A DNA stretch of 30,096 nucleotides from Candidatus Sigynarchaeum calidifontis. Its GTDB lineage: Archaea; Asgardarchaeota; Lokiarchaeia; Sigyniarchaeales; Sigyniarchaeaceae. Under the pieces are notes generated by a model. That model was not told where the DNA came from, made no database searches, and was given only the letters and a program-made list of their open reading frames with translations. Made by a program: the position numbers and the translations under genes. Of this stretch, positions 1,164 to 21,816 are shown piece by piece. The stretch's first letter is position 1. Every line of letters begins with the position of its first letter. Location: NCBI GenBank assembly GCA_030587475.2, contig JAUQYZ020000261.1:1-30096 (forward strand). The letters are read 5' to 3'.

Positions 1164-1234
1164 GTTGACGCGGGATCTATGATTATACACATGGCAGATT
1201 AGATGATTTTTCCCCGCGAGCGGTGCATGTGAAT

Positions 1235-3415
1235 ATGGACGCCAAGCTATATTTGTACGTCGAAGAGAAGGACTCGTTCACCGAGGTCACGAAGGTCACG
1301 AGCAAGGACGTCGTTTTCATCGTTTTAATGGACGAGCAAAAGGTCATCGTTTGGCAAGGAAAGGAATCGCCCCGAATGCTCCGTTATAAAGGAGGCATGA
1401 AGGTCGCGACGCTCATCAGCACGAAACGGCTCTACAACTTCAAGAGCGAGATCGTGATCGAGGGTGAAGAACCGGCATCGGTGCGGGAACTCATCACGCG
1501 GCACTTTGGGAAGCGCGAGCTATCGCAAGCCGAGATCGCTCGTGACGACCGCTTGCAAGTGGAAGCAAAGGCAAAAGCGATCGCCGAAAAATATTCCCAA
1601 CGTGAGCCCGAGTTGGTTCAACATGCGAGGCCTGCCACGCCCACCCCCGTCGAGAGCCGGGAGCCATCGAAACTAGTGCCGGTTTCCGAAAAAACACTCG
1701 AATCGAAAGAGGATCGCCAGGCTACATCCATCCAGGCAGAATTACGCCGGGTCAACCTCGGTTTGGGACAAAACCTGGCCGCCATGGAAAATATCAGCTT
1801 GGAAAAGAAGCAATACTTGTCCAAGGACGAAAGGGAGGTCCTCGACGAGGCCAGGCGGGAACAGAATCGCTCTGAAAACCTCGCGAGCGTGCAGGAAACC
1901 AAGCTCTGGGATGAGGAGCGGAAACAACTGCTCAGGAATCAGGAAGAGGCGAGGCAGCGAGAGCTCGAGGCTGAGAAGCGACGGAAAGAAGCGGCAGAAC
2001 GCGAGCGAATAGCGAGCGAGAAGCGCTTCATGGAGGAGAAATTGCGGAAGGAAAGAGAAGAGATGGAACGCGAGCGCCGTGTACTCGAGGAGAAATTACG
2101 CGAGGAGGAGCTTGCCAGGAAGAATGCTCAAGAAGCGGCCGAGAAAGCGCGCGAGGCGAGGAAGAAAGACCTGGTAGAATTCGAGGTGCGCAAGATCGAC
2201 CTCAGAATGCAGGTCCGGCGCAAGGGCATCGACTACATCGCCGCGCCCCCGCCCGGTGGATCTCACATCTTGTACCGTATCGAGAAGGGCGTCGCTGTCA
2301 GGATGCAGCCCGAGTACATGACCATGGGAGACGTGTATTTGCTCGACAAGGGGAATAAGGTGTTCGTTTGGAATGGCAAGCTCGCGTCGCTGGACGAGCG
2401 ATTCTTCGGGGACGAGATCGCGAAAATGCTCAAGGAAAAACGCGGCCCCGAGACGGAAATCATCTCCATCGAGCAAGCCAATGAAACGATCGACTTCGTT
2501 TCTAGCTTCGAGTCCTTGTCAATCCTCGATGGGAACTTCGCAGAATCCATCTTGAAGAAGGAGCAAGTGGGAACGTCGAAAGACTTCATATTGTACCGTT
2601 TCAAGACCGAGGGCGGATTGCTATTCATGGAAATGCCAAAATCTCACTCGTCGGTGACCAGCAACGATTCTTTCCTCTTCGATTTCGGCAAGGAGATCAT
2701 CGTTTGGCACGGGAAAGATTCGAACCCAGAGGAACGCCGGCGAAGTGCCGAGATCGCCTCGATGTTCAAGAAGGAGCGGGGCGAGGGCGTCAAGATACAA
2801 GTGGTTAACGAGGGTAGCGAGCCGGCCTACGATCAACTTCCCGCCCCCGTCTGGCCGATCTTGAAGGGGGAGAAACGCGCGGCAGAAATGGCCGACGCAT
2901 ACCACAAGGCCATGAGTGCCCTAGAGGCACAGCGACGCGAGGCTGCCCTCAAGCAGCAACAAGAAGCGGAAGCGAAGCGGCTCCTGGAGGAGAAAAAGGC
3001 CCTCGATGAGACCGAGCGGATCGAGCGGGAGATGCTCCAGAAGGAGATCGAGCGCAAGAAGGCGGAACTCACCCCCCAGCAGATCGAGGCGAAATGGCGC
3101 GAATTCAGGCGCAAGATGCGGGAGCGACGCGGGCTGCCACCAGAAGACGAGACCATCAAGATCGACCTCAAGACCGGCGAGAGCATTGCCGATGCAAAGC
3201 CAGCGGCAGCGCCCGTTCCCGAGGTCGACAAAGCCCAGTTCAAGAAGCAAAAGGAAAAGGAATTCGAGCAACTCAAGCGCATCGAGCTCGAGATGCTCGA
3301 GAAGCGGATCAGCCGGGAGAAACCAGCCGCGGACGTGGAAGCGCGCTGGCGGGCCGACTTGCAAGCAAAGCTGGACGGGCAATGGAAGGAAATTCAGGAG
3401 GAATTCAAGGAATGA
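1235..3415 (+). CDS. Gelsolin/villin-like protein: 3 gelsolin domains plus two long E/R/K-rich helical regions
   Basis: Three gelsolin signatures: VIVWQGKES...IVIEGEEP; GDVYLLDKGNKVFVWNGKLASLDER...IEQANET; NDSFLFDFGKEIIVWHGKDSNPEER...VNEGSEP. Charged helical stretches at about 1820-2170 and 2880-3415. Confidence 0.88.
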   Translation: MDAKLYLYVEEKDSFTEVTKVTSKDVVFIVLMDEQKVIVWQGKESPRMLRYKGGMKVATLISTKRLYNFKSEIVIEGEEPASVRELITRHFGKRELSQAEIARDDRLQVEAKAKAIAEKYSQREPELVQHARPATPTPVESREPSKLVPVSEKTLESKEDRQATSIQAELRRVNLGLGQNLAAMENISLEKKQYLSKDEREVLDEARREQNRSENLASVQETKLWDEERKQLLRNQEEARQRELEAEKRRKEAAERERIASEKRFMEEKLRKEREEMERERRVLEEKLREEELARKNAQEAAEKAREARKKDLVEFEVRKIDLRMQVRRKGIDYIAAPPPGGSHILYRIEKGVAVRMQPEYMTMGDVYLLDKGNKVFVWNGKLASLDERFFGDEIAKMLKEKRGPETEIISIEQANETIDFVSSFESLSILDGNFAESILKKEQVGTSKDFILYRFKTEGGLLFMEMPKSHSSVTSNDSFLFDFGKEIIVWHGKDSNPEERRRSAEIASMFKKERGEGVKIQVVNEGSEPAYDQLPAPVWPILKGEKRAAEMADAYHKAMSALEAQRREAALKQQQEAEAKRLLEEKKALDETERIEREMLQKEIERKKAELTPQQIEAKWREFRRKMRERRGLPPEDETIKIDLKTGESIADAKPAAAPVPEVDKAQFKKQKEKEFEQLKRIELEMLEKRISREKPAADVEARWRADLQAKLDGQWKEIQEEFKE

Positions 3416-10858: not shown

Positions 10859-13800
10859 TCAAGAAAAATCCGCGAGCGATGTCTGCTTTCTCGTGCCGTT
10901 GAATATCGTCGATTCAACGCGCTCGGCAAGGATTTGCATCTTCTGCTGTGTATAGGGCGGGAGGTTGTACTCTTTCGCCATGTGCAGCGCGAGTTCCAGG
11001 TATTTCTTGATGCTCCCCGACGAGACGGTAAGGGTTAATGACGTGTTACCGCACTTGCATTTCCCCGATAGCGGCGGCCGGCGGTACTTCTCGTTGCATT
11101 TCGTGCACCTGAACTGCTGGCTCGTGAACGCGCGCAAGTTTCCCATGATATCCGGCGTGAAATGCGCCGAGATCACGCGCTTGGCCTGGTCAGCCCCGTC
11201 CACTGCCGCGATCTTCTTGGCAAGGGCAAACTGCGCCACGATCTTGTCCTCCATCGATTCGAGTTCCTTGTACGCCGTCGTTTTCGGCCCCTCGTTGATG
11301 CTCGTCGTCGGGTGGGTGAACCCGGCACCCTCGTACTGGCCCACCGTGCCGAGCCTGTCCTTGACCGTCTCGACGAGCTTGGCCAGCTTCTTGGGGTCGG
11401 GATATTCTTGCGATTTCTCGTAGAACTCGATCGGGTAGCTGAAGCACGTGTCCACGTTGTGTGCCTCGGCATCGACTTCCTCGGGCACGACCCGGCTGGA
11501 AATGACGAGCGGCGTGTCCATCTTCGCGCCCGTGCTGGAGGGTAAATAATACCGGGAGAAATTCAAGATGACATCGAGGAAGAGGAGAATTCCATCCTCA
11601 TCACCATCGCAATTGCGCCTTTTCGCGGCGTGATATGTTGGAGTGGCGTACCCGACGTTTGCTGTCGTGAATCCGATGACCCGGCCGACGATCCCGGCTG
11701 ACGTGTGCGGCGCCAGGCCGATGACCAGCTGCCCGATGAAGTCCCGCTCGGTCTTGATGTTATAATAGCGCGGCATGCCGTACACCTTCTCGAGCAAGTC
11801 GTCGACGAACGAGGCGACCTTGAAGAGGTATTTCAGCGATGCCTTCGGCAAGAGGATGTCTTGTATTTTCAACTCGCATACCTGGTTCGGGTGCTCGAGA
11901 GGCTTCCCGAACACGTCATGGGTATAGCCGAGTTTCTTTATGTCGTCGACCGTCGCGAAGATCTCCCGCGGGCAGAAATGCGTGAGCGGAACGTCGGTCG
12001 TGTCGAACCGAGCGGTGCCGTCCTTGTACACGTAGACCTCGTGCTTCGCCCGGAGCATGCCCTTTTCCAGCGGCTCGGGGATCTTGTGGGCGCTCGATAA
12101 CCCCTTGATCGCCTTGATCGTGGGCATGTTGAAGTTGACCCGCTTCATCGCGGCGGTGTACAAGTTGACCAGGTTCACCTCGCGGTTCGAGTAATACTGC
12201 CCGATGGCCCCGCACGATGGACACGTGTCCTCTCCCTCCTTGAGCACTTTCTTGCACTTGTTGCACGATTTGAAAAAGACCGTGTCTTTCTTGCACTTGT
12301 GGCACACGGGCAAGAAGGTCACGGCGCCGCAATCGGGGCACGCGCGGTTGGCCAGGTCGACCTTGATGACACGCTTTTTCATGGCATCCTGGAATATCCG
12401 TTGGGCACCCGAATCGTGGCCGATCGGGAACAAGACATGGACGGGCGGGTTCATCTTGCGTTCCTTGGCCTTTTCCGGCCGGCCCATGCGAAGCCCCATG
12501 AAGTAAGGTGCCTTGTCGCGTATCTTGATTTCCGAATACTTGTTGATGGCCTCCACCGCGTTAGTTACAGTGAGATCTATGAATGCGCCGGGATTTCGCA
12601 GGCCGAGGGTCTCTATCAGCGGTAAACTCTCGTCGAGAAAGTCATAAACATCGCCGTCCACGACATGCGGGATGCAAGCACGTTCGAGCAATCGCTTCAT
12701 CTCGGGATCGTGCGGTATCGTGAGGTGCGTGTTCCCCGCATCATCTTTCCTGACCACCTTGCCCGCTGCGAGCCACGTGCGCAAGGCATCTAGCTGTTGG
12801 AGGCTCAACGCGTTCCAGAAATACACGTATCGAGGGTGTAACGGTATGCCGAGCACCCTGGACAGCTCAATGGCGTGCACGGGCCCCGGTTTCTTGTAAA
12901 AGAAATCATCGATCCACGATTGTACCAGGCCGGGGTCGGCCTTGATGGCCGATGCGAGGCCCGCCACGTCCATTGACCTTGCCGCCATGGCCCGCTTCAC
13001 TTCGAGGATCCACCACTCCTCGACCCATGGTGATGGCATGATCTCGTGGTTATTCTCCGCGAATTCCCCGAAACCGATGAGCACGTCCCCAAGAAAGAGG
13101 ACTTTCTCTATAGCCGGGACGATCTTCTCGATCCCCTTCGTTTTTTCGATCCGGACAACGTCCCCGCTCCTCAATCGCACGATGGGACCCTCGATCGAGT
13201 CCACGGGCATGCACACCGTGCTCTTGCCAGGCCGCTCGACGCGCATCTGCGTGCCGATGGCCATGAATCTGTCGGTCGCGTACATCGTTGCCGGGTGAAA
13301 GCCGTAGCCTGCCAGGCCCATGTCGCGCGAGTGCCCGTACCTGATCCGGAACCCCCCGTGAGCGGAGGGATGGGCGATGATCGGCCGGCCCGCGATGACC
13401 TCGGAGATGAACTTGTCTTTGGGCTCGATCCTCTTCTTGCCTTCCTTTTTTTCCTCCTTTTTCGCGCCCTGGAACAGCTCGTCACCGAATTTCTTGTCGG
13501 CCATGTTATCTAATTGTTTATCATCGTGGTTACCTTTCGGGATATGCTTGAGCCAATCCCATCCCTCTTTTAACGCCTTGATGCCAAGGGCGTCGATGAT
13601 CTTGTTGAGTTTTGGAGCTTTCGCGAGCACGCCATCATTGACGACAAGGCAAGCCCCGCCCCGGATCGCGTTCGTCTCGATGCGGGGAAGGTTTCGGTGA
13701 GCCGAGACCTCTTCCGGGTTGGTCTGGTCGCCGGTGACCTCGACGGTCAGGTGGCGAACGACCCAGTCGAGTTCCTCGACCTTGCTCGTGTATTGGAGAT

Positions 13801-14377
13801 TCACGACCTTGTCGTAAAGCTTGATCTCCTCGATATACCGGGCGACCTCGTCCTCCGTGGGTATCCATTTACCAAGTCCGAGCATCTGTCGTATGTGATC
13901 GGCGATGAGTACCACGTATGCCTGGGTCGTGCCTCCGGCCGCTCGGATGGGCCCTTGAAAGTAAAGCGCGAGGTAAGCGCCATTTGGATCTTTCTTGATC
14001 TTGATCTCGCCTATGCCCTCGAGTGGAGCAGAGACAACGCCCTCCGTCTTGATGGCCAGCGCGCAGCGAATGGCCAGATCGGCGGCATATTGCGGGTCCT
14101 TGTCCTTGTAATCGTTCACGATCTTCTCGGCGACCTTAAAAGCGACCTTGTCTCTATCAAGGGTCATCGAGAGATCCCGAATGTAAGCCGCGATGCCCTT
14201 TGGCCCGACGAGTTCCTCCACGCGGCCGGCGATGTCCGGTGCCACGTTAACCTCGGGCTCTGGTACGGGGTCAATTCCCCCTTTTCTCCTTGCCTCGCGG
14301 GCGATCTTGTACATCTCCTCAATCTTGTCGTCGATCTCCTTGAAATAACGTGCCATTGCTTCGGACATGACGACCAT
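10859..14377 (-). CDS. polC: DNA polymerase D large (catalytic) subunit DP2
   Basis: TEGVVSAPLEGI, GPIRAAGGT, GGFRIRYG, RMGRPEKAKERKM, catalytic KRRNCDGDED, Cys4 zinc clusters and C-terminal PIP box KQTSLADF. No intein seen. Confidence 0.98.
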   Translation of the reverse strand: MVVMSEAMARYFKEIDDKIEEMYKIAREARRKGGIDPVPEPEVNVAPDIAGRVEELVGPKGIAAYIRDLSMTLDRDKVAFKVAEKIVNDYKDKDPQYAADLAIRCALAIKTEGVVSAPLEGIGEIKIKKDPNGAYLALYFQGPIRAAGGTTQAYVVLIADHIRQMLGLGKWIPTEDEVARYIEEIKLYDKVVNLQYTSKVEELDWVVRHLTVEVTGDQTNPEEVSAHRNLPRIETNAIRGGACLVVNDGVLAKAPKLNKIIDALGIKALKEGWDWLKHIPKGNHDDKQLDNMADKKFGDELFQGAKKEEKKEGKKRIEPKDKFISEVIAGRPIIAHPSAHGGFRIRYGHSRDMGLAGYGFHPATMYATDRFMAIGTQMRVERPGKSTVCMPVDSIEGPIVRLRSGDVVRIEKTKGIEKIVPAIEKVLFLGDVLIGFGEFAENNHEIMPSPWVEEWWILEVKRAMAARSMDVAGLASAIKADPGLVQSWIDDFFYKKPGPVHAIELSRVLGIPLHPRYVYFWNALSLQQLDALRTWLAAGKVVRKDDAGNTHLTIPHDPEMKRLLERACIPHVVDGDVYDFLDESLPLIETLGLRNPGAFIDLTVTNAVEAINKYSEIKIRDKAPYFMGLRMGRPEKAKERKMNPPVHVLFPIGHDSGAQRIFQDAMKKRVIKVDLANRACPDCGAVTFLPVCHKCKKDTVFFKSCNKCKKVLKEGEDTCPSCGAIGQYYSNREVNLVNLYTAAMKRVNFNMPTIKAIKGLSSAHKIPEPLEKGMLRAKHEVYVYKDGTARFDTTDVPLTHFCPREIFATVDDIKKLGYTHDVFGKPLEHPNQVCELKIQDILLPKASLKYLFKVASFVDDLLEKVYGMPRYYNIKTERDFIGQLVIGLAPHTSAGIVGRVIGFTTANVGYATPTYHAAKRRNCDGDEDGILLFLDVILNFSRYYLPSSTGAKMDTPLVISSRVVPEEVDAEAHNVDTCFSYPIEFYEKSQEYPDPKKLAKLVETVKDRLGTVGQYEGAGFTHPTTSINEGPKTTAYKELESMEDKIVAQFALAKKIAAVDGADQAKRVISAHFTPDIMGNLRAFTSQQFRCTKCNEKYRRPPLSGKCKCGNTSLTLTVSSGSIKKYLELALHMAKEYNLPPYTQQKMQILAERVESTIFNGTRKQTSLADFS

Positions 14378-14502
14378 GGATCAAACCTTCACCCGCGCGT
14401 TGACTTCATCGTGCAACGAGGGAAAATAAAGGTTTCTGGCTTAATATTGCACGTTGTTAACGCGCCATTACCGGGTATCCCGCTCGCCCGCATTCTCGCC
14501 GC

Positions 14503-14522
14503 GTTATTAAATTATTAATAAC
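14503..14522. promoter_or_regulatory. AT-rich palindrome in the DP2/DP1 divergent intergenic region
   Basis: GTTATTAA-ATTA-TTAATAAC (8-bp arms, 4-nt spacer). Confidence 0.4.
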
Positions 14523-14756
14523 CGCAAGGAATGATGCACGAACATCAATGGTTGATTTTCGTCGCTCGTCAACGCATGGTGCAATTATGCAGAGACTCGC
14601 GCAACGGTTAACGCGAATCCTAATATGTGATTGGGAACCATAATTTCTTACATCAAGCACCCGCGTGGATCTGGGCGGGCACAGCTTCGCGTCCGTCACC
14701 TCGATTAGCGAGCCTTCCACGCGGGGCACGACGCGTGATCGGGCGATCAAGCGACC

Positions 14757-16520
14757 ATGACCATCGAGGAACCGCTGGACAAGGCAATTATCATGGACTT
14801 CTTGCGTGCAGGTTTCAATATCACGCCCGGTGCCTTGTCCTTCATAAAACAGCGAGATGATCCCTCGCAGTTCGCCCAGCTTCTCTTGAAATCGTTCAGA
14901 AGCACGCGGCAGCACCAGACCATCACCCGCGAGATGCTCGAGTCGATCGATAACGCGGTGGCTAAACTCGTGAGCGGCTTGGCCAAGGCGCAGGTAACCG
15001 CTGGCGGGGCACTAGCAGAGCGCGCGGCGGAAAAAGCATCACTAAACGAGTCGGAGACGAAGGATAGCACCGAGCGATTACTTGCCACGCCAGGGTCAAG
15101 AGCAGGGCCCATCGGCAAAGCATCTACATCCACGCCCGAGAGACCTGCGAGAAGTACATTTACTGAGGCTCAGGCATCTATCGATTCCGTCTCGATCGAC
15201 GAAATCCCCGTCCCGGCAACAAGTGCTCATTCCCGCGACAGCGACTTGACATCTAAATCCACGATCATTCCACTCGCCAAGGAGTATGCTGCCAGGGTAA
15301 AGGTCATCGAGGACTGCACGGGAAAGCTAAGGAACGATGGCGAGTTCAACGATTTCCTCCACTTGTTCTCTGACAGATTCGAGAAGATCAAGAACATCTT
15401 TAAGAACAGGAGCGATATCCCCCGGATCGTCGACATCGGAGACGTTGGCGAAGCATCCCGTGCCGGAGAGGAGTGTTATATCATCGGCATGGTCGTGGAC
15501 AAGCGACAGACCAAGTCAGGTAACCTTATGCTGGAGATCGACGACAACACGGGACACACGAACGTCGTCATCTCCACGAAGATCAAGGATCCCAGGATCC
15601 TGACTACCATCGTACTTGATGAGGTGCTTTGCTTCAAAGGATTTAGCAAGGAGGGCTTTTTCTTCGCCACCGATTTTTACTGGCCCGACGTGAAGCGAAA
15701 CCGAAGGCCGCAGCTCGCCAGCGAGGACCTGTCGATCGCGCTCATCTCGGATATCCATATCGGAAGCGACAATCATCTCGGCGTGCTATGGGACAAGTTC
15801 AAGCGCTGGATCCGTGGTGAAGGGTTATCCGAGAAAGCGCGGGAATTTGCCGGGAAAGTGAAATATGTCGCCATCGCAGGCGACCTTGTCGACGGCATCG
15901 GGGTATACCCGACGCAAGAGGATCACCTCGTCATCAAAGACGTCTACCAGCAGTTCGACAAGGCTGCCGAGATGCTGCGGGAACTCCCCGATTACATCAC
16001 GTTCATCGTCTCGCCGGGCTCGCACGAACCTGTCCGCAGGGCATTGCCCCAGCCCGCGATCCCGAGATCTTACGCGAGAGGCTTGTACGACCTCAAGGCG
16101 GTAATGGTCGGTAACCCGGCCGTCGTCGAGACGCACGGCGTCAAGACCATGCTCTTCCACGGCGAGAGTTTCATCGACTTGGCTATCGACATCCCGGGCA
16201 TGTCGAACAGTAATCCAGAAAAAGCTATGGAGAAATTAATGACGTGTCGGCACCTGGCACCATCATTCGGTAAAAAGACCGAACTCGCCCCAGACAAGAA
16301 AGACTGGCTCGTCATCAACGAGGTGCCAGACATCCTCCACACGGGACACGTCCATTGCAACGGCGTCAAGCAATACCATGGCACGTGGCTCGTCAATTCC
16401 GGCTGCTTCCAGGGCCAAACGGACTTCATGAAAGGGCTGGGAATCGAACCAAGCCCGGGAAAGCCTAATATCATTTCCCTCAAGAGCTTCCAGTTGACCA
16501 CGCTGAACCTGTCTGGGTGA
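14757..16520 (+). CDS. polB: DNA polymerase D small (proofreading exonuclease) subunit DP1
   Basis: OB-fold region (IIGMVVDKRQTKSGNLMLEIDDNTG) and phosphoesterase motifs SDIHIG, AGDLVDG, PGSHE, FHG, RHLAP and HTGHVH; disordered N-terminal linker. Confidence 0.96.
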   Translation: MTIEEPLDKAIIMDFLRAGFNITPGALSFIKQRDDPSQFAQLLLKSFRSTRQHQTITREMLESIDNAVAKLVSGLAKAQVTAGGALAERAAEKASLNESETKDSTERLLATPGSRAGPIGKASTSTPERPARSTFTEAQASIDSVSIDEIPVPATSAHSRDSDLTSKSTIIPLAKEYAARVKVIEDCTGKLRNDGEFNDFLHLFSDRFEKIKNIFKNRSDIPRIVDIGDVGEASRAGEECYIIGMVVDKRQTKSGNLMLEIDDNTGHTNVVISTKIKDPRILTTIVLDEVLCFKGFSKEGFFFATDFYWPDVKRNRRPQLASEDLSIALISDIHIGSDNHLGVLWDKFKRWIRGEGLSEKAREFAGKVKYVAIAGDLVDGIGVYPTQEDHLVIKDVYQQFDKAAEMLRELPDYITFIVSPGSHEPVRRALPQPAIPRSYARGLYDLKAVMVGNPAVVETHGVKTMLFHGESFIDLAIDIPGMSNSNPEKAMEKLMTCRHLAPSFGKKTELAPDKKDWLVINEVPDILHTGHVHCNGVKQYHGTWLVNSGCFQGQTDFMKGLGIEPSPGKPNIISLKSFQLTTLNLSG

Positions 16521-17170: not shown

Positions 17171-18655
17171 TTACCCCTTGGTCACGCCGATGGGAACGAG
17201 TTTAACAACTTTCTTGACGATACCGAGATCATGGCTAACCTGGACGACCTGATCGATCGATTTATAAGCCCCGGGCGCTTCCTCGGCGATGACCGTGTCG
17301 GTCTGTGCCTTGACATAGATTCCCTTCGATTGCAGCTGGTTCGCGATCTCGTTTCCACGGTAATTGCGGATGGCAGCCTCTCGTGACAATGCACGGCCTG
17401 CACCGTGAGCCGTGGAGCCAAATGACAGCTCCATGGCTTTTGGCTGACCGATGCACAGGTAAGAGGCGGTACCCATGGAGCCAGGGATGAGAACGGGCTG
17501 GCCAGTGGCCTGGAACTGCGGGGGAAGCTTTGGGTGCCCAGGCGGGAACGCGCGAGTGGCCCCCTTGCGGTGCACGTTGAGCATCAACTTTTTCCCGTCG
17601 ACGACGTGTTCCTCTTTTTTCAAGATATTGTGGCACACGTCGTAGATGAGATGTAGATCCATATCTTCGGCTTTTTTCTTATAAACATCCGAGAATGATT
17701 TTCGAACCCAGTGCGTTATCATTTGTCGATTCGACCAAGCGAAGTTAGCCGCACAGCACATTGCCTCGAAATAATCTTGTGCTTCAGGTGTGCTCCCGGC
17801 CACGTATGCGAGCTCGCGGTCGGGCAGCGATATGTTGTACTTGCGCACGGCTTGCTCCATGGTTCGCAAGTAATCCGTGCATACTTGATGTCCCAAGCCG
17901 CGGGAACCTGTGTGGATCATGGCCGTGATCTGGCCGACCTCGTTTATGCCAAAGGCTTTCGCGGTTGATGGGTCGAAGATCTCGGCAACGCGCTGGATCT
18001 CGAGAAAGTGGTTGCCGCTGCCCAGGGAACCGATCTGGGACTTGCCGCGGCTTTTTGCCTTCCCCGAGACTTTCGCCGCGTTTCCGGGCATGCATCCATG
18101 TTCCTCGCAGTAGATCGAGTCTTCTTCCCAGCCATATCCTTTCCTGATCGCCCAGTTGACCCCGTTCTCGAGGATGTCGTCGAGATCCTTGGGCGTGATG
18201 GTGCCGATGGTGCCAGACGAACCGACGCCAGACGGCACGTTGTCGAAAAGCGCGTTCAAGAGATCCTTGATCTTCGGGCGTACTTCCGCCTCCTTCAAGT
18301 TCGTGCGCAGTAGGCGAACTCCGCAGTTGATGTCGTATCCAACACCGCCAGGCGAGATGACTCCCTCTTTCTCGAACGTGGCTGCCACGCCGCCAATGGG
18401 GAACCCGTATCCTTGATGCGCGTCGCTGAGGGCTATCGCGAACTTTAAGGTTCCTGGCAAGCACGCCACGTTGGTTAGCTGGTCGAGGGTCTGGTCAGTC
18501 TTGATCTTGGCAAGCAATGCCTCGTTGGCATAGACCCTGGCGGGAACCGTCATCTCGAAAGATTTAACTTGGCCCTCTATTCGGGCCATTTTCTTGGTTT
18601 TTGGTATCTCGTAGATGTTATCTGCGAGCTTGACCAAATTGAACTCGTGTTTCAT
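17171..18655 (-). CDS. rtcB: tRNA-splicing ligase RtcB
   Basis: DAHQGYGFPIGGV, PGGVGYDINCGVRL, GSLGSGNHFLE, HTGSRG, HRKGATRAF, PGSMG, HGAGR and EEAPGAYK. Confidence 0.98.
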   Translation of the reverse strand: MKHEFNLVKLADNIYEIPKTKKMARIEGQVKSFEMTVPARVYANEALLAKIKTDQTLDQLTNVACLPGTLKFAIALSDAHQGYGFPIGGVAATFEKEGVISPGGVGYDINCGVRLLRTNLKEAEVRPKIKDLLNALFDNVPSGVGSSGTIGTITPKDLDDILENGVNWAIRKGYGWEEDSIYCEEHGCMPGNAAKVSGKAKSRGKSQIGSLGSGNHFLEIQRVAEIFDPSTAKAFGINEVGQITAMIHTGSRGLGHQVCTDYLRTMEQAVRKYNISLPDRELAYVAGSTPEAQDYFEAMCCAANFAWSNRQMITHWVRKSFSDVYKKKAEDMDLHLIYDVCHNILKKEEHVVDGKKLMLNVHRKGATRAFPPGHPKLPPQFQATGQPVLIPGSMGTASYLCIGQPKAMELSFGSTAHGAGRALSREAAIRNYRGNEIANQLQSKGIYVKAQTDTVIAEEAPGAYKSIDQVVQVSHDLGIVKKVVKLVPIGVTKG

Positions 18656-18856
18656 GGTTCCTTTGTCACCACCACGGACTCGGTGGTTTTTTTTATGCAT
18701 GAAACTACTACGGCAATGTTTTTCTGGTTTATGTCTTGGAAAAAAAAGGCAAGGCGACTTCGATTGCTGGTGCGCGGCAAATTATTATTCATTGCGAAGC
18801 GTAATACCACATAGCCCCGCGTGAAAAACACCACGCGAAACCCACCGGTGGCCGAT

Positions 18857-19468
18857 ATGGACGCACTCTACCTCATTCACGCGCACTCTGGCAATTGCAT
18901 CATCTTCCGGAAATATGGTAACCTTGAATTCAACGAGGACTTGATTGCTGGTTTTTTGACGGCTCTAAAAGACTTCAGCTCCGAGGTGACTGGTGGAAAA
19001 GGGCGCATGAAGAATTTGGATATGGGCGAATACACGATCTTGTTACTCAACGAATCGGGGTTGCTCATCGCCGCCGCGATCAACAAGCGACGCGATGATG
19101 AGAGCATCGCATACAAGGCACTCAGGGAACTGCTCGAGGCGTTTTTGAAGGATTACAAGGACGTCCTTGTCAACTGGAACGGCAACCTCAAAATTTTCAA
19201 GGATTTCGAGCCAAAAATCGACAAGATACTCAAGAATGGCAAGGTTGCCGAGAAAGAGGTATTCGCGGCCGTCTTGAAAAAGAAACTCCCCAAGCAACTC
19301 GTCGAGATGGGTGCGCTGACCAAGGAAGAATTCGAATTCGCCAATTACCTGAACGGCACCGACCCGTCGGATGTCCTCGCCGAGAAACACGGCATCCCGA
19401 AAGAAAAAGTGGATGTTATGCTCGACAAGTTCAAGAGCCTTGGCCTCATCAAGCTCAACAAGCTATAG
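18857..19468 (+). CDS. Longin-domain protein with C-terminal winged helix
   Basis: Asgard-type longin pattern LYLIH..SG.CI, EDLIAGFLTALKDFSSEV, F...Y...L.NWNGNLKIFKDF. C-terminal EFANYLNGT...LAEKHGIPKEKVDVMLDKFKSLGLIK is wHTH-like. Confidence 0.75.
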   Translation: MDALYLIHAHSGNCIIFRKYGNLEFNEDLIAGFLTALKDFSSEVTGGKGRMKNLDMGEYTILLLNESGLLIAAAINKRRDDESIAYKALRELLEAFLKDYKDVLVNWNGNLKIFKDFEPKIDKILKNGKVAEKEVFAAVLKKKLPKQLVEMGALTKEEFEFANYLNGTDPSDVLAEKHGIPKEKVDVMLDKFKSLGLIKLNKL

Positions 19469-19502
19469 CGGTTATAGCCCCCGCTCCCGTGACTTGCAAA
19501 AG

Positions 19503-19961
19503 TTAAATGTCGAAGATGACATTTAACTGGTACAGCCCGTCCTTGCTATTTTTCTCGATTGTCATGTAGGAGTAGGTGATGGCCTTCACCTCCCTGCCCG
19601 GGACATGGTGTCCCTTCTTGAAGGTCTCGCCCTTGAACGTGCTCGTGACGCGATATGTTCCCCCGGGGAGTGCTTCGACCGACTTCACGTCCACGTCGCC
19701 GAGCACGAATAGCTCCGAGTCTGAATAAAAAAGCAGCTCGGTCAACCAGTCGAACAATGCAGCTTTCAAGTCTTCGGCTTCCGTGACAACATCGATTTCC
19801 CTTTCCAAGGCGATCGCGGGCTCGGGTACCATGACGCGCGCGAGCACGAGGGCCGCCTCCCGGAACAATTCTTCAAGCGATGGCGCCCACGCAACGACTT
19901 GAATATCCGCGGGATGACTCAAAAACTTGTGCCCGGTCGTTTTTTCTTGATCTTTCATCAT
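19503..19961 (-). CDS. Archease (RtcB cofactor)
   Basis: FLSHPADI, LEELFREAA, DWLTELLF, EVKAITY and C-terminal FDI. Confidence 0.93.
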   Translation of the reverse strand: MMKDQEKTTGHKFLSHPADIQVVAWAPSLEELFREAALVLARVMVPEPAIALEREIDVVTEAEDLKAALFDWLTELLFYSDSELFVLGDVDVKSVEALPGGTYRVTSTFKGETFKKGHHVPGREVKAITYSYMTIEKNSKDGLYQLNVIFDI

Positions 19962-20038: not shown

Positions 20039-20668
20039 CTAAACCTTCATCTTCTCGCATAAATCATTGAATTGCTTGTTGAATTTCTCCAATTCCTTGT
20101 TGTACTCGTCACGCCGACGGATGATGTCAGCCTTGGCTTGATCAAACGACCTGCCAGCCGCGTTCTTGTTCTCTTCCATGGCACCCTTCTTGTCGCTGAG
20201 CTTGTCCTTTTTCTCGAAGAGAACCTGGTCGGCCTTGATGAACTTGTGGAGCCAATCGCCCATTAACTCGTATCCTTGGCCAATTGCAATAAGTTTCTCG
20301 ATCACATTCTTTGCTTGAAACGTGGACGTTTTGATGGCTTCCGACAAGGCGACGTAATACTTGATGTCCTCGTCGAAGTTCGCGGCTTCTTTTTTATAAA
20401 GATCCACTTCTGATTTGTCGATCTTGGACTTGTCGACACCCATATTCTCTCCCTTGACCAACGCGATATCCTCGATCTTCTTTGCAAGCTCCTCTAGAAA
20501 ACGCTTTGCTTCTCCCTTGATCCTGATGAGCGCGTCATATTCCTTGGCCATATTCTCCCGTATATCTGCGAGTCTTTTTTCCGCGTTGGCAATCTGCTTG
20601 TAGAACTTGCCGACCTCCCCTTCCGCCTTCGCGAAGGCAAGCAGGTCGGCGTGCGAATCGATCGGCAT
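20039..20668 (-). CDS. All-alpha coiled-coil protein (209 aa), possible BAR-like domain
   Basis: No Pro after residue 2, long heptad-patterned helices and no TM segment. The C-terminus resembles helix 3 of Vps5/SNX-BAR. The CDS is well supported; the fold call is tentative. Confidence 0.6.
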   Translation of the reverse strand: MPIDSHADLLAFAKAEGEVGKFYKQIANAEKRLADIRENMAKEYDALIRIKGEAKRFLEELAKKIEDIALVKGENMGVDKSKIDKSEVDLYKKEAANFDEDIKYYVALSEAIKTSTFQAKNVIEKLIAIGQGYELMGDWLHKFIKADQVLFEKKDKLSDKKGAMEENKNAAGRSFDQAKADIIRRRDEYNKELEKFNKQFNDLCEKMKV

Positions 20669-20795
20669 GGGTTATTCCTCGATGTGTGTGATCGGTGGAT
20701 GTGATGTTTCATGCAATGATCGGTATAATTCAAGATAAAAGTAATGGTGATAGTCCGAGAGGGGCTATCAAGATCAGGAAAAAAAGAATAAAGGT

Positions 20796-21239
20796 CTACT
20801 GGCTTTCTGATATGGATCGGAAAATGCTGGCGAGCTCGTGATCCCTATATTCTTCTTTGATGGAAACTTGAGCTTTCTTGTAGGCCTTGTCGATCCCGTC
20901 GGCGAATTTTTTCAAATACATTCGGCTGATACCCATCTGGACAGAAGCATCGGACACCGCAGAAAGGATCACGTCATCGCCCATGATCGTGAAGAGTTTT
21001 TCGCCCGTGGCGAATTCGAAGATGCTCGAATCGAGAGGCTTCTCGCTCGCTTGAGATAATTGGTAAAGGGTGCTCGATAAAGCCGCGACGTTCTCGATGT
21101 TCTCTTTCCGGGCGAATTTTGAAGCCGCCGCGATGACGTCGCCAGATTTTTTGCTAGACACGATCATCTGGTTGATGCCGATGATCTTTGTCATTACCGT
21201 CTTGAGATGTTTCTCGATCAAGTCTTGCATGTCTGCCAT
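20796..21239 (-). CDS. Roadblock/LC7 (MglB/LAMTOR-like) domain protein
   Basis: Alpha-beta-beta-alpha-beta-beta-beta-alpha pattern: GINQMIVSSKKSGDVIA, VAALSSTL, SIFEFATGEKLFTIMGDDVILSAV, QMGISRMYLKK. Confidence 0.8.
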   Translation of the reverse strand: MADMQDLIEKHLKTVMTKIIGINQMIVSSKKSGDVIAAASKFARKENIENVAALSSTLYQLSQASEKPLDSSIFEFATGEKLFTIMGDDVILSAVSDASVQMGISRMYLKKFADGIDKAYKKAQVSIKEEYRDHELASIFRSISESQ

Positions 21240-21390
21240 GCGATTCATCTTGGAATGATGTTCTTGCTTGGCAGATGTGGCGGATGCGGGGTGTAAAGAA
21301 ACGGCATATGATCCTCGGATGCCCGGTGGGATACCTCGAAATAAAGGTAGTCTCGAACGATAATAAATAGAAAATAGGGGGAGGGCAATG

Positions 21391-21816
21391 TCATTCAGAG
21401 CGTCGTTTCGCCAACAAGCTCTTCAACTCGTCCATTATACTAGCCTTGAGCGACATCGGCCCGCCAGCACCTGGCGGTCGTGCAGCGGGTGGTGGCGGTG
21501 GCCCGCCTGGCGGTGGCGGCGGCCCCATTCCTGGCGGCATAGGCATTCCAGGATTGTTTATGCCGGGGGGCATCGGGGCCCCGCCTATGCCCGGCGGTAG
21601 TGGGGCGCCGGCCATGCCACCCCCGCCTGAGTTCAGCCGGGCGTTGATGGCATCGATCTGTTGTTGCAGCGCCTGAACCTGTGCGTTGATGATGGTCGGT
21701 AACTTGTCTGACACTATCGCCGAGAGTACTTCCATGGTCTCCATGATGCGCTGCAATTTCTCATCGAGCGAGCTGGTTTTTTTAGCGCCCAAGAAATCTA
21801 GGAATTCTGAGGACAT
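21391..21816 (-). CDS. Coiled-coil/polyproline protein with C-terminal VASP-FAB/WH2-like helix
   Basis: N-terminal heptads (LQRIMETMEVL...VQALQQQIDAINARL), Pro/Gly linker with GPPPPPGGPPPPP, and C-terminal SIMDELKSLLAKRRSE. Confidence 0.75.
   Translation of the reverse strand: MSSEFLDFLGAKKTSSLDEKLQRIMETMEVLSAIVSDKLPTIINAQVQALQQQIDAINARLNSGGGGMAGAPLPPGIGGAPMPPGINNPGMPMPPGMGPPPPPGGPPPPPAARPPGAGGPMSLKASIMDELKSLLAKRRSE

Follow-up and report, generated by a model that had tools for sequence, protein, structure and literature searches.

How Asgard archaea bundle their actin filaments and attach them to curved membrane is the question on which the locus described here bears. Asgard archaea crawl with actin-filled protrusions and are said to depend chiefly on gelsolins and profilins, with Ena/VASP proteins and formins cited as features of eukaryotic migration (PMC13716822). 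In an initial annotation of a window of 30,096 nucleotides, i.e. the whole stretch of DNA analysed, from Candidatus Sigynarchaeum calidifontis (host genome of 4.99 Mb, 89% complete), three neighbouring genes, VASP-like, roadblock and BAR-like, were tentatively read as a minimal, GTPase-regulated system that couples membrane curvature to actin elongation. Here we asked whether these genes encode such an elongation system, a filament tether or proteins of unrelated processes. The genes and elements concerned are the following:

1223-3415, plus strand: gelsolin-repeat protein of 730 aa (PF00626, E 1e-23, two stretches pass)
18857-19468, plus strand: protein with a longin-like domain and a C-terminal winged helix (weak Pfam hits), convergent with archease
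19503-19961, minus strand: archease, the RtcB partner (PF01951, E 1e-32), between the BAR-fold and longin genes
20039-20668, minus strand: stand-alone three-helix protein of 209 aa, BAR-like predicted fold (AlphaFold2 model, fold searches)
20189..20209, minus strand: basic loop between helices 2 and 3 of the 209-aa protein (Lys154, Lys156, Lys160), its basic character shared by at least 92% of 60 homologues
20733..20740, minus strand: TATA-like TTTTATCT, situated 65 nt upstream of the BAR-fold gene; a T7 tract, which follows the stop of the roadblock gene, precedes it
20796-21248, minus strand: Roadblock/MglB-type protein of 150 aa with a C-terminal extra helix (profile search)
21391-21816, minus strand: 'tether' protein of 141 aa with an N-terminal coiled coil, a proline/glycine-rich arm and a conserved C-terminal helix

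The tether, roadblock and BAR-fold ORFs are adjacent and co-oriented on the minus strand, at the positions first annotated, and, judged by the conservation of all three proteins in relatives, they are genuine genes and not chance ORFs. Close homologues of the window's proteins carry the labels Ca. Sigynarchaeum or Lokiarchaeota, as befits a Sigynarchaeaceae-like Lokiarchaeon. The database call of the roadblock gene starts at Met4, giving 147 aa, and at one locus (L125) the tether ORF is present, being uncalled in the source annotation. The gaps of 142 nt (tether/roadblock) and 127 nt (roadblock/BAR-fold) agree with the annotated gaps of about 130-150 nt, and a T-rich tract follows each stop. 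TTTTATCT, a putative promoter element by comparison with the archaeal promoter consensus, aligns in five of the six loci from the host's family (f1 of the four families of its order, f1 to f4). Given these T-tracts and the retention of TTTTATCT, the three genes are probably transcribed separately, as had been suggested from the T-rich and TATA-like tracts. A sigma-70 promoter scan was set aside, the model being unsuited to archaeal promoters and its result at chance level.

The surroundings are otherwise of housekeeping type, with genes for PolD subunits, RtcB, archease and Nre; the genes for the large (DP2) and small (DP1) PolD subunits (10859-16520) are divergent and do not form one operon. 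No small GTPase gene was found in the window, although the host genome has about 36. Both further genes mentioned in the initial annotation, a longin gene about 0.6 kb away and a multi-gelsolin gene, are present. The gelsolin-repeat protein, with its long charged coiled-coil inserts, is encoded ~17 kb from the cluster. The longin gene ends 571 nt from the BAR-fold gene, but the archease gene, overlooked in the initial annotation, intervenes, and the longin gene travels with archease and RtcB. It lies beside archease in f1, in one f2 genus and in f3, and was not seen there in the f4 loci. RtcB and archease (17171-19961), which are tRNA ligation partners, flank it, and the RtcB-longin-archease trio recurs in f1 and one f2 genus, its archease-longin part in f3. 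The Pfam hits behind its longin and winged-helix domains are weak: E 0.033 for Longin and, in relatives, 4e-4 at best for TrmB/HTH_47. The longin gene may be tied to the RtcB/archease locus rather than to the tether.

The AlphaFold2 model of the 209-aa protein comprises helices 6-74, 85-153 and 158-207 with a pLDDT of 92. Its top VIA-align match was arfaptin (Z 12.9, rmsd 3.5, 181 aligned residues), whereby a Z under about 13 is, by the tool's own warning, common among helical bundles without kinship, and non-BAR bundles reached Z 10.4-10.9 against the same model. SNX5, Lsp1, SNX1, Vps5, ACAP4 and FAM92A1 were the other leading matches; the top ten in Foldseek were all BAR-family, none reaching E 0.001, and the Atlas search returned FAM92 (TM 0.71). 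Fold searches with a paralogue of ~15% identity were again led by BAR domains, so that the BAR-superfamily superposition of a ~200-residue three-helix monomer was obtained for two family members, with a Z borderline for helical bundles. At the sequence level, no BAR Pfam family passed for the 209-aa family (FCH, E 0.014, in 4 of 60 members), and PDB profile searches matched designed coils only.

Compared with classical BAR domains, namely arfaptin (1i49, 4dcn), SNX1/SNX5 (4fzs, 8a1g), Lsp1 (3plt), ACAP4 (9jih) and FAM92A1 (8ceg), the protein shares a length of ~200 residues, three long helices that run antiparallel and are about as long as theirs, and a basic helix 2-3 loop, and for most of them the superposition covers the whole domain (rmsd 3.1-4.3 A over 162-181 residues). 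It differs in its 8-15% identity, in lacking a Pfam match and in standing alone, without PX, PH or SH3 domains or a clear N-terminal amphipathic helix. The model is nearer to the classical BAR type than to the VASP-recruiting I-BAR type (Z 9-10). We consider it likely, on the strength of the model, that the protein has a BAR-type fold: BAR domains came first in three fold searches, and a non-BAR coil, named beforehand as the outcome that would speak against a BAR-like protein, was not what they ranked first, though the borderline Z and the Foldseek E-values leave the annotated BAR likeness short of firm. The helix 2-3 loop lies in what we take to be the position of the distal basic tip of a BAR dimer. 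Besides its lysines, Arg173, Lys179, Arg184 and Arg185 are conserved; net charge across the homologues ranges from -6 to +6.

The 209-aa family is present in 72 of the 76 genomes of the order, usually in one copy. Nothing convincing was found outside the order, where a broad profile gave incomplete and weak matches (E above 4e-5) that we regarded as generic coils; by these searches the family is confidently found only in one order. The broader profile also recovered a second BAR-like paralogue in some genomes of the order. This paralogue family (L165-L169; P0072-P0101) occurs in f2 and f3 genomes, does not adjoin a tether gene and carries, towards the end of helix 3, a conserved Trp, which the family encoded in the window has lost. 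The main text of two recent structure-based Asgard surveys mentions neither BAR domains nor VASP.

The middle gene was correctly recognised as a roadblock gene, its profile matching an Asgard roadblock protein (7yh1, E 8e-5), Myxococcus xanthus MglB (E 5e-4) and 7f8m (E 0.005). As with MglB and Asgard roadblock proteins (7yh1, 7f8m, 6h5b; PMC10933270), the match covers the region of the C-terminal extension helix; unlike in those systems, there is no partner GTPase gene nearby, and the protein is a divergent paralogue that was found in one family only. The host encodes three paralogues of this MglB-like protein. Among 41 genomes of the order, a close orthologue (E below 1e-60) occurs only in f1, scores elsewhere being at paralogue level, near 1e-10, or none.

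The tether and BAR-fold genes lie within 1 kb of each other in 64 of the 70 genomes in which both were located, a sample dominated by f4 and equivalent to about four independent observations, not 64. The two are adjacent in each of the order's four families, and three arrangements occur: BAR-fold then tether in f4 (61 of 63 genomes, both exceptions at contig ends), tether then BAR-fold in one f2 genus and, with the roadblock gene between them, in f1 (all six loci examined), and convergent in f3. The genes lie far apart in three further f2 genera, three closed genomes among them, and none of 17 loci of other Asgard groups has a BAR-like neighbour of the tether gene. A three-gene module across Asgard genomes is not supported: the triple is found only in f1, the pair in one order and the tether alone elsewhere. 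A conserved neighbourhood, on which that proposal depended, does exist for the tether-BAR pair, but does not extend to the f1-only roadblock gene or to the three closed genomes. The core is a two-gene pair and not a three-gene operon.

Some of these data would suit a gene order simply inherited among housekeeping genes (Nre, archease, RtcB, Elf1, pelota), with the three proteins serving unrelated processes. The BAR-fold gene has its own promoter-like element, T-tracts separate the genes, orientation varies and the pair is unlinked in the three closed genomes; moreover, archease is an immediate neighbour of the BAR-fold gene, or one gene removed from it, in three families (f1, f2 and f3), and Elf1 lies near the tether in two (f2 and f4). 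The tether-BAR pair is nevertheless the sole adjacency retained in all four families despite changed flanks and relative order, and we consider an inherited order unlikely. The pair is the most durable adjacency, only modestly so, archease and Elf1 being kept nearly as widely.

Profiles of the tether family gave matches in 189 of the 301 Asgard genomes searched, members including Jord-, Odin-, Freyr-, Hel-, Hod- and Lokiarchaea, a spread across Asgard archaea equal to that of Lokiactin. No significant Pfam match was obtained for the host protein or family members, an ESM Atlas feature search returned unnamed clusters only, and no description of the family was found in the papers searched. The layout of coil, low-complexity arm and end helix is constant; in the host protein the parts are as follows:

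21631..21783, minus strand: coiled coil, residues ~12-62 (PDB sequence matches mostly trimeric coils)
21457..21606, minus strand: proline/glycine-rich arm, residues ~71-120, containing two proline runs (4-5 residues)
21400..21456, minus strand: end helix, residues 121-139, with a likeness to the F-actin-binding (FAB) motif of VASP

The best PDB matches of the coil were GCN4-adhesin fusions, reovirus sigma-1 and Lpp, which suggests that it is probably a parallel trimer. WAVE/WASH coils (HSPC300/BRICK1, HSBP1, WASH WAHD) resemble the tether in having an N-terminal trimer-like coil, a proline-rich arm and a terminal helix. A WAVE/WASH/HSPC300 ancestry was set aside: the matches (HSBP1 E 0.007, WASH_WAHD E 0.087, BRICK1 E 0.1) are non-significant and stand among many generic coils, and, unlike WAVE/WASH, the tether is devoid of WH2, central or acidic Arp2/3-activating segments. 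The arm is 46% Pro in the host and 8-46% across Asgard archaea; a run of at least four prolines is absent in 17 of 29 members, long runs being mainly Lokiarchaeal.

Within the end helix Glu130-Leu131-Lys132 is near-invariant. Against the VASP FAB core, a 13-residue query taken from the sequence printed in PMC10340426, the helix has 6 of 13 identities (10 of 16 in a Thorarchaeia-type member), a match whose boundaries were chosen after the likeness had been noticed and which fades with a longer query. A scan of 4,686 host ORFs with this core ranked three tail proteins first to third (scores 39, 39 and 34), the tether joint top; as these are the tether and two homologous tails, they count as one observation. 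The remaining 4,683 ORFs scored at most 30, and about 0.1 windows scoring 39 would be expected by chance. The tether reached the top three in 0 of 200 full shuffles and in 14 of 200 (7%) pattern-preserving shuffles.

The other hallmarks of Ena/VASP (EVH1, proline-rich region, GAB, FAB, tetramer coil) were sought likewise. A GAB query on host ORFs gave the tether a score of 10-14 (rank 1,579-3,156); EVH1 is absent, the protein beginning with the coil and no family member having a Pfam match; and there is no C-terminal tetramer coil, the chain stopping two residues past the helix. For the tail, neither WH2 nor a PDB actin binder was matched, searching PDB and Pfam by its profile gave nothing meaningful, and a rough pattern search of the host yielded no convincing candidate for a WH2 microprotein. 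The likeness to Ena/VASP comprises a putatively oligomerising coil, a proline arm of the Ena/VASP type and the 6 of 13 identities of the end helix to the FAB core; the coil, however, is N-terminal and trimer-like where that of Ena/VASP is C-terminal and tetrameric, and the length is 141 residues against about 380. Without EVH1, GAB and a C-terminal tetramer coil, the tether, by its sequence features, is not an Ena/VASP member. The description of a coil/polyproline/FAB-like protein holds, its helix exceeding full shuffles though equalled by 7% of the pattern-preserving ones, while the epithet VASP-like must be narrowed accordingly.

Actin elongation, the activity first proposed, fares worse. 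The layout of oligomer, polyproline and FAB-like helix in Lokiarchaeales, the BAR-like fold and the constant three-gene order in f1 would suit a BAR-recruited processive elongator switched by roadblock- or longin-regulated GTPases. Against it speak the lack of EVH1, WH2 and GAB (ranking 1,579th or lower), the absence of proline runs from most non-Loki members and the restriction of the roadblock orthologue to f1. Furthermore, Loki profilins are reported not to bind VASP polyproline (PMC8410842), which weakens profilin-fed elongation in the very lineage richest in prolines, and no host profilin was found above the Pfam cut-off in the 89% complete genome. We therefore hold the elongator model to be very unlikely; both elongation and GTPase control of the locus would be proposals only.

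In the host and elsewhere in the order, the whole coil-arm-helix module also occurs as the C-terminal tail of Arf/Gtr1_RagA GTPases (hhalign of tether against GTPase tail module: 93%, E 3e-7). In the tailed Lokiarchaeal GTPases compared (host C22, L174, L181, L182, L184), homologous coil, arm and helix follow in the same order but are fused behind the G domain, whereas the tether stands alone. The host example (C22:19698-21131, minus strand) is a small GTPase of 477 aa that starts with a helical domain and ends in the complete coil-proline-helix tail, and similar Arf/Rag-like proteins were found at L174, L177, L178, L181, L182, L184, L186, L188, L190 and L192. We found no description of them in the papers searched. 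None of 15 secondary matches was a tail fusion to gelsolin or profilin. These fusions tie the module to GTPases more directly than the roadblock gene does; neither the roadblock nor the longin gene contributes much.

Other proteins with the motif include a 322-aa protein without a Pfam family (C132:16811-17779, plus strand, in the host; L183:223-1146), which has a helical N-terminus, a coil, long proline repeats and the end helix nearest to VASP FAB in the host. In proteins of ~670-700 aa (L175:817-2910, L187:1296-3293) the proline arm and end-helix motif lie mid-protein, that of L175 ending in hydrophobic, membrane-like segments.

This distribution bears on two further readings of the end helix. 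It might dock a non-actin partner (a GTPase effector, a protein of trafficking or ESCRT type, or even the BAR dimer), in which case the tether would be an adaptor or a competitor of the tailed GTPases. The motif occurs outside the tether mostly on Arf/Rag-like GTPases and not on known actin regulators, its conserved hydrophobic face with an invariant Leu is typical of short docking helices, and WH2 or PDB actin-binder matches are lacking. Nevertheless, the specific VASP FAB likeness exceeds shuffles, and the tether family is as widespread as Lokiactin, unlike the BAR-like family with its restriction to one order, so that non-actin docking seems to us rather unlikely. Should the helix not bind actin, it would still represent an unnamed Asgard-wide docking module. 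Alternatively, the helix could be a basic amphipathic membrane anchor of MinD/FtsA type on the tether and the GTPases, as its extreme C-terminal position and net charge of +3 to +4 would allow, and Asgard GTPases would presumably need a non-lipid anchor. Its hydrophobic moment is low, however (0.10-0.16 over a 17-mer), conservation is sequence-specific and includes an acidic residue, and in the two long proteins the motif is internal; an anchor is accordingly quite improbable.

As the best explanation we tentatively put forward a multivalent filament tether beside a BAR-like membrane scaffold, and not a VASP-type polymerase. The 209-aa protein, as modelled, would form a BAR-type antiparallel dimer and bind curved membrane via its basic tips. 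The tether would oligomerise via its N-terminal coil to present several flexible arms, each with a FAB-like end helix, and these helices may grip Lokiactin filaments, making it a multivalent tether or bundler. Adjacency of the genes suggests that both proteins could act at the same curved membranes, e.g. protrusions. GTPase input, if any, would more likely come via the tailed Arf/Rag-like GTPases, which could co-assemble with the stand-alone tether, while the roadblock protein would be a family-specific MglB-like addition that may regulate a tailed GTPase.

A more far-reaching version, to which we assign some but little weight, makes the tether a prokaryotic protein that binds F-actin multivalently, its end helix being ancestral or functionally equivalent to VASP FAB; in Lokiarchaeales it would, together with a true BAR dimer, couple Lokiactin to curved protrusion membrane, the Arf/Rag-like GTPases joining via the same tail. 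[quoted passage not shown] One closed genome of the order (6.0 Mb), probably from L. ossiferum, encodes exactly two members of the BAR-like family, and these may be the two pull-down BAR proteins. In this genome the BAR-fold and tether genes are unlinked, and a tailed Arf was not found with one query.

The candidates offered by the locus are two small, soluble-looking, near-universal Lokiarchaeal proteins, a 20-residue motif and the GTPases sharing that motif. It should be added that variants of the tether exist. Two adjacent host genes (C267:9157-11071, plus strand) encode products with a tether-like N-terminal coil (E 5e-6 and 0.05) and no clear copy of the end helix. Tandem tether gene pairs (L090:3201-4036, L098:82-973) occur in two Helarchaea-like genomes from sister families of the same class, and a minimal version of 98 aa (L193:160-453) consists of coil and end helix with almost no proline arm.
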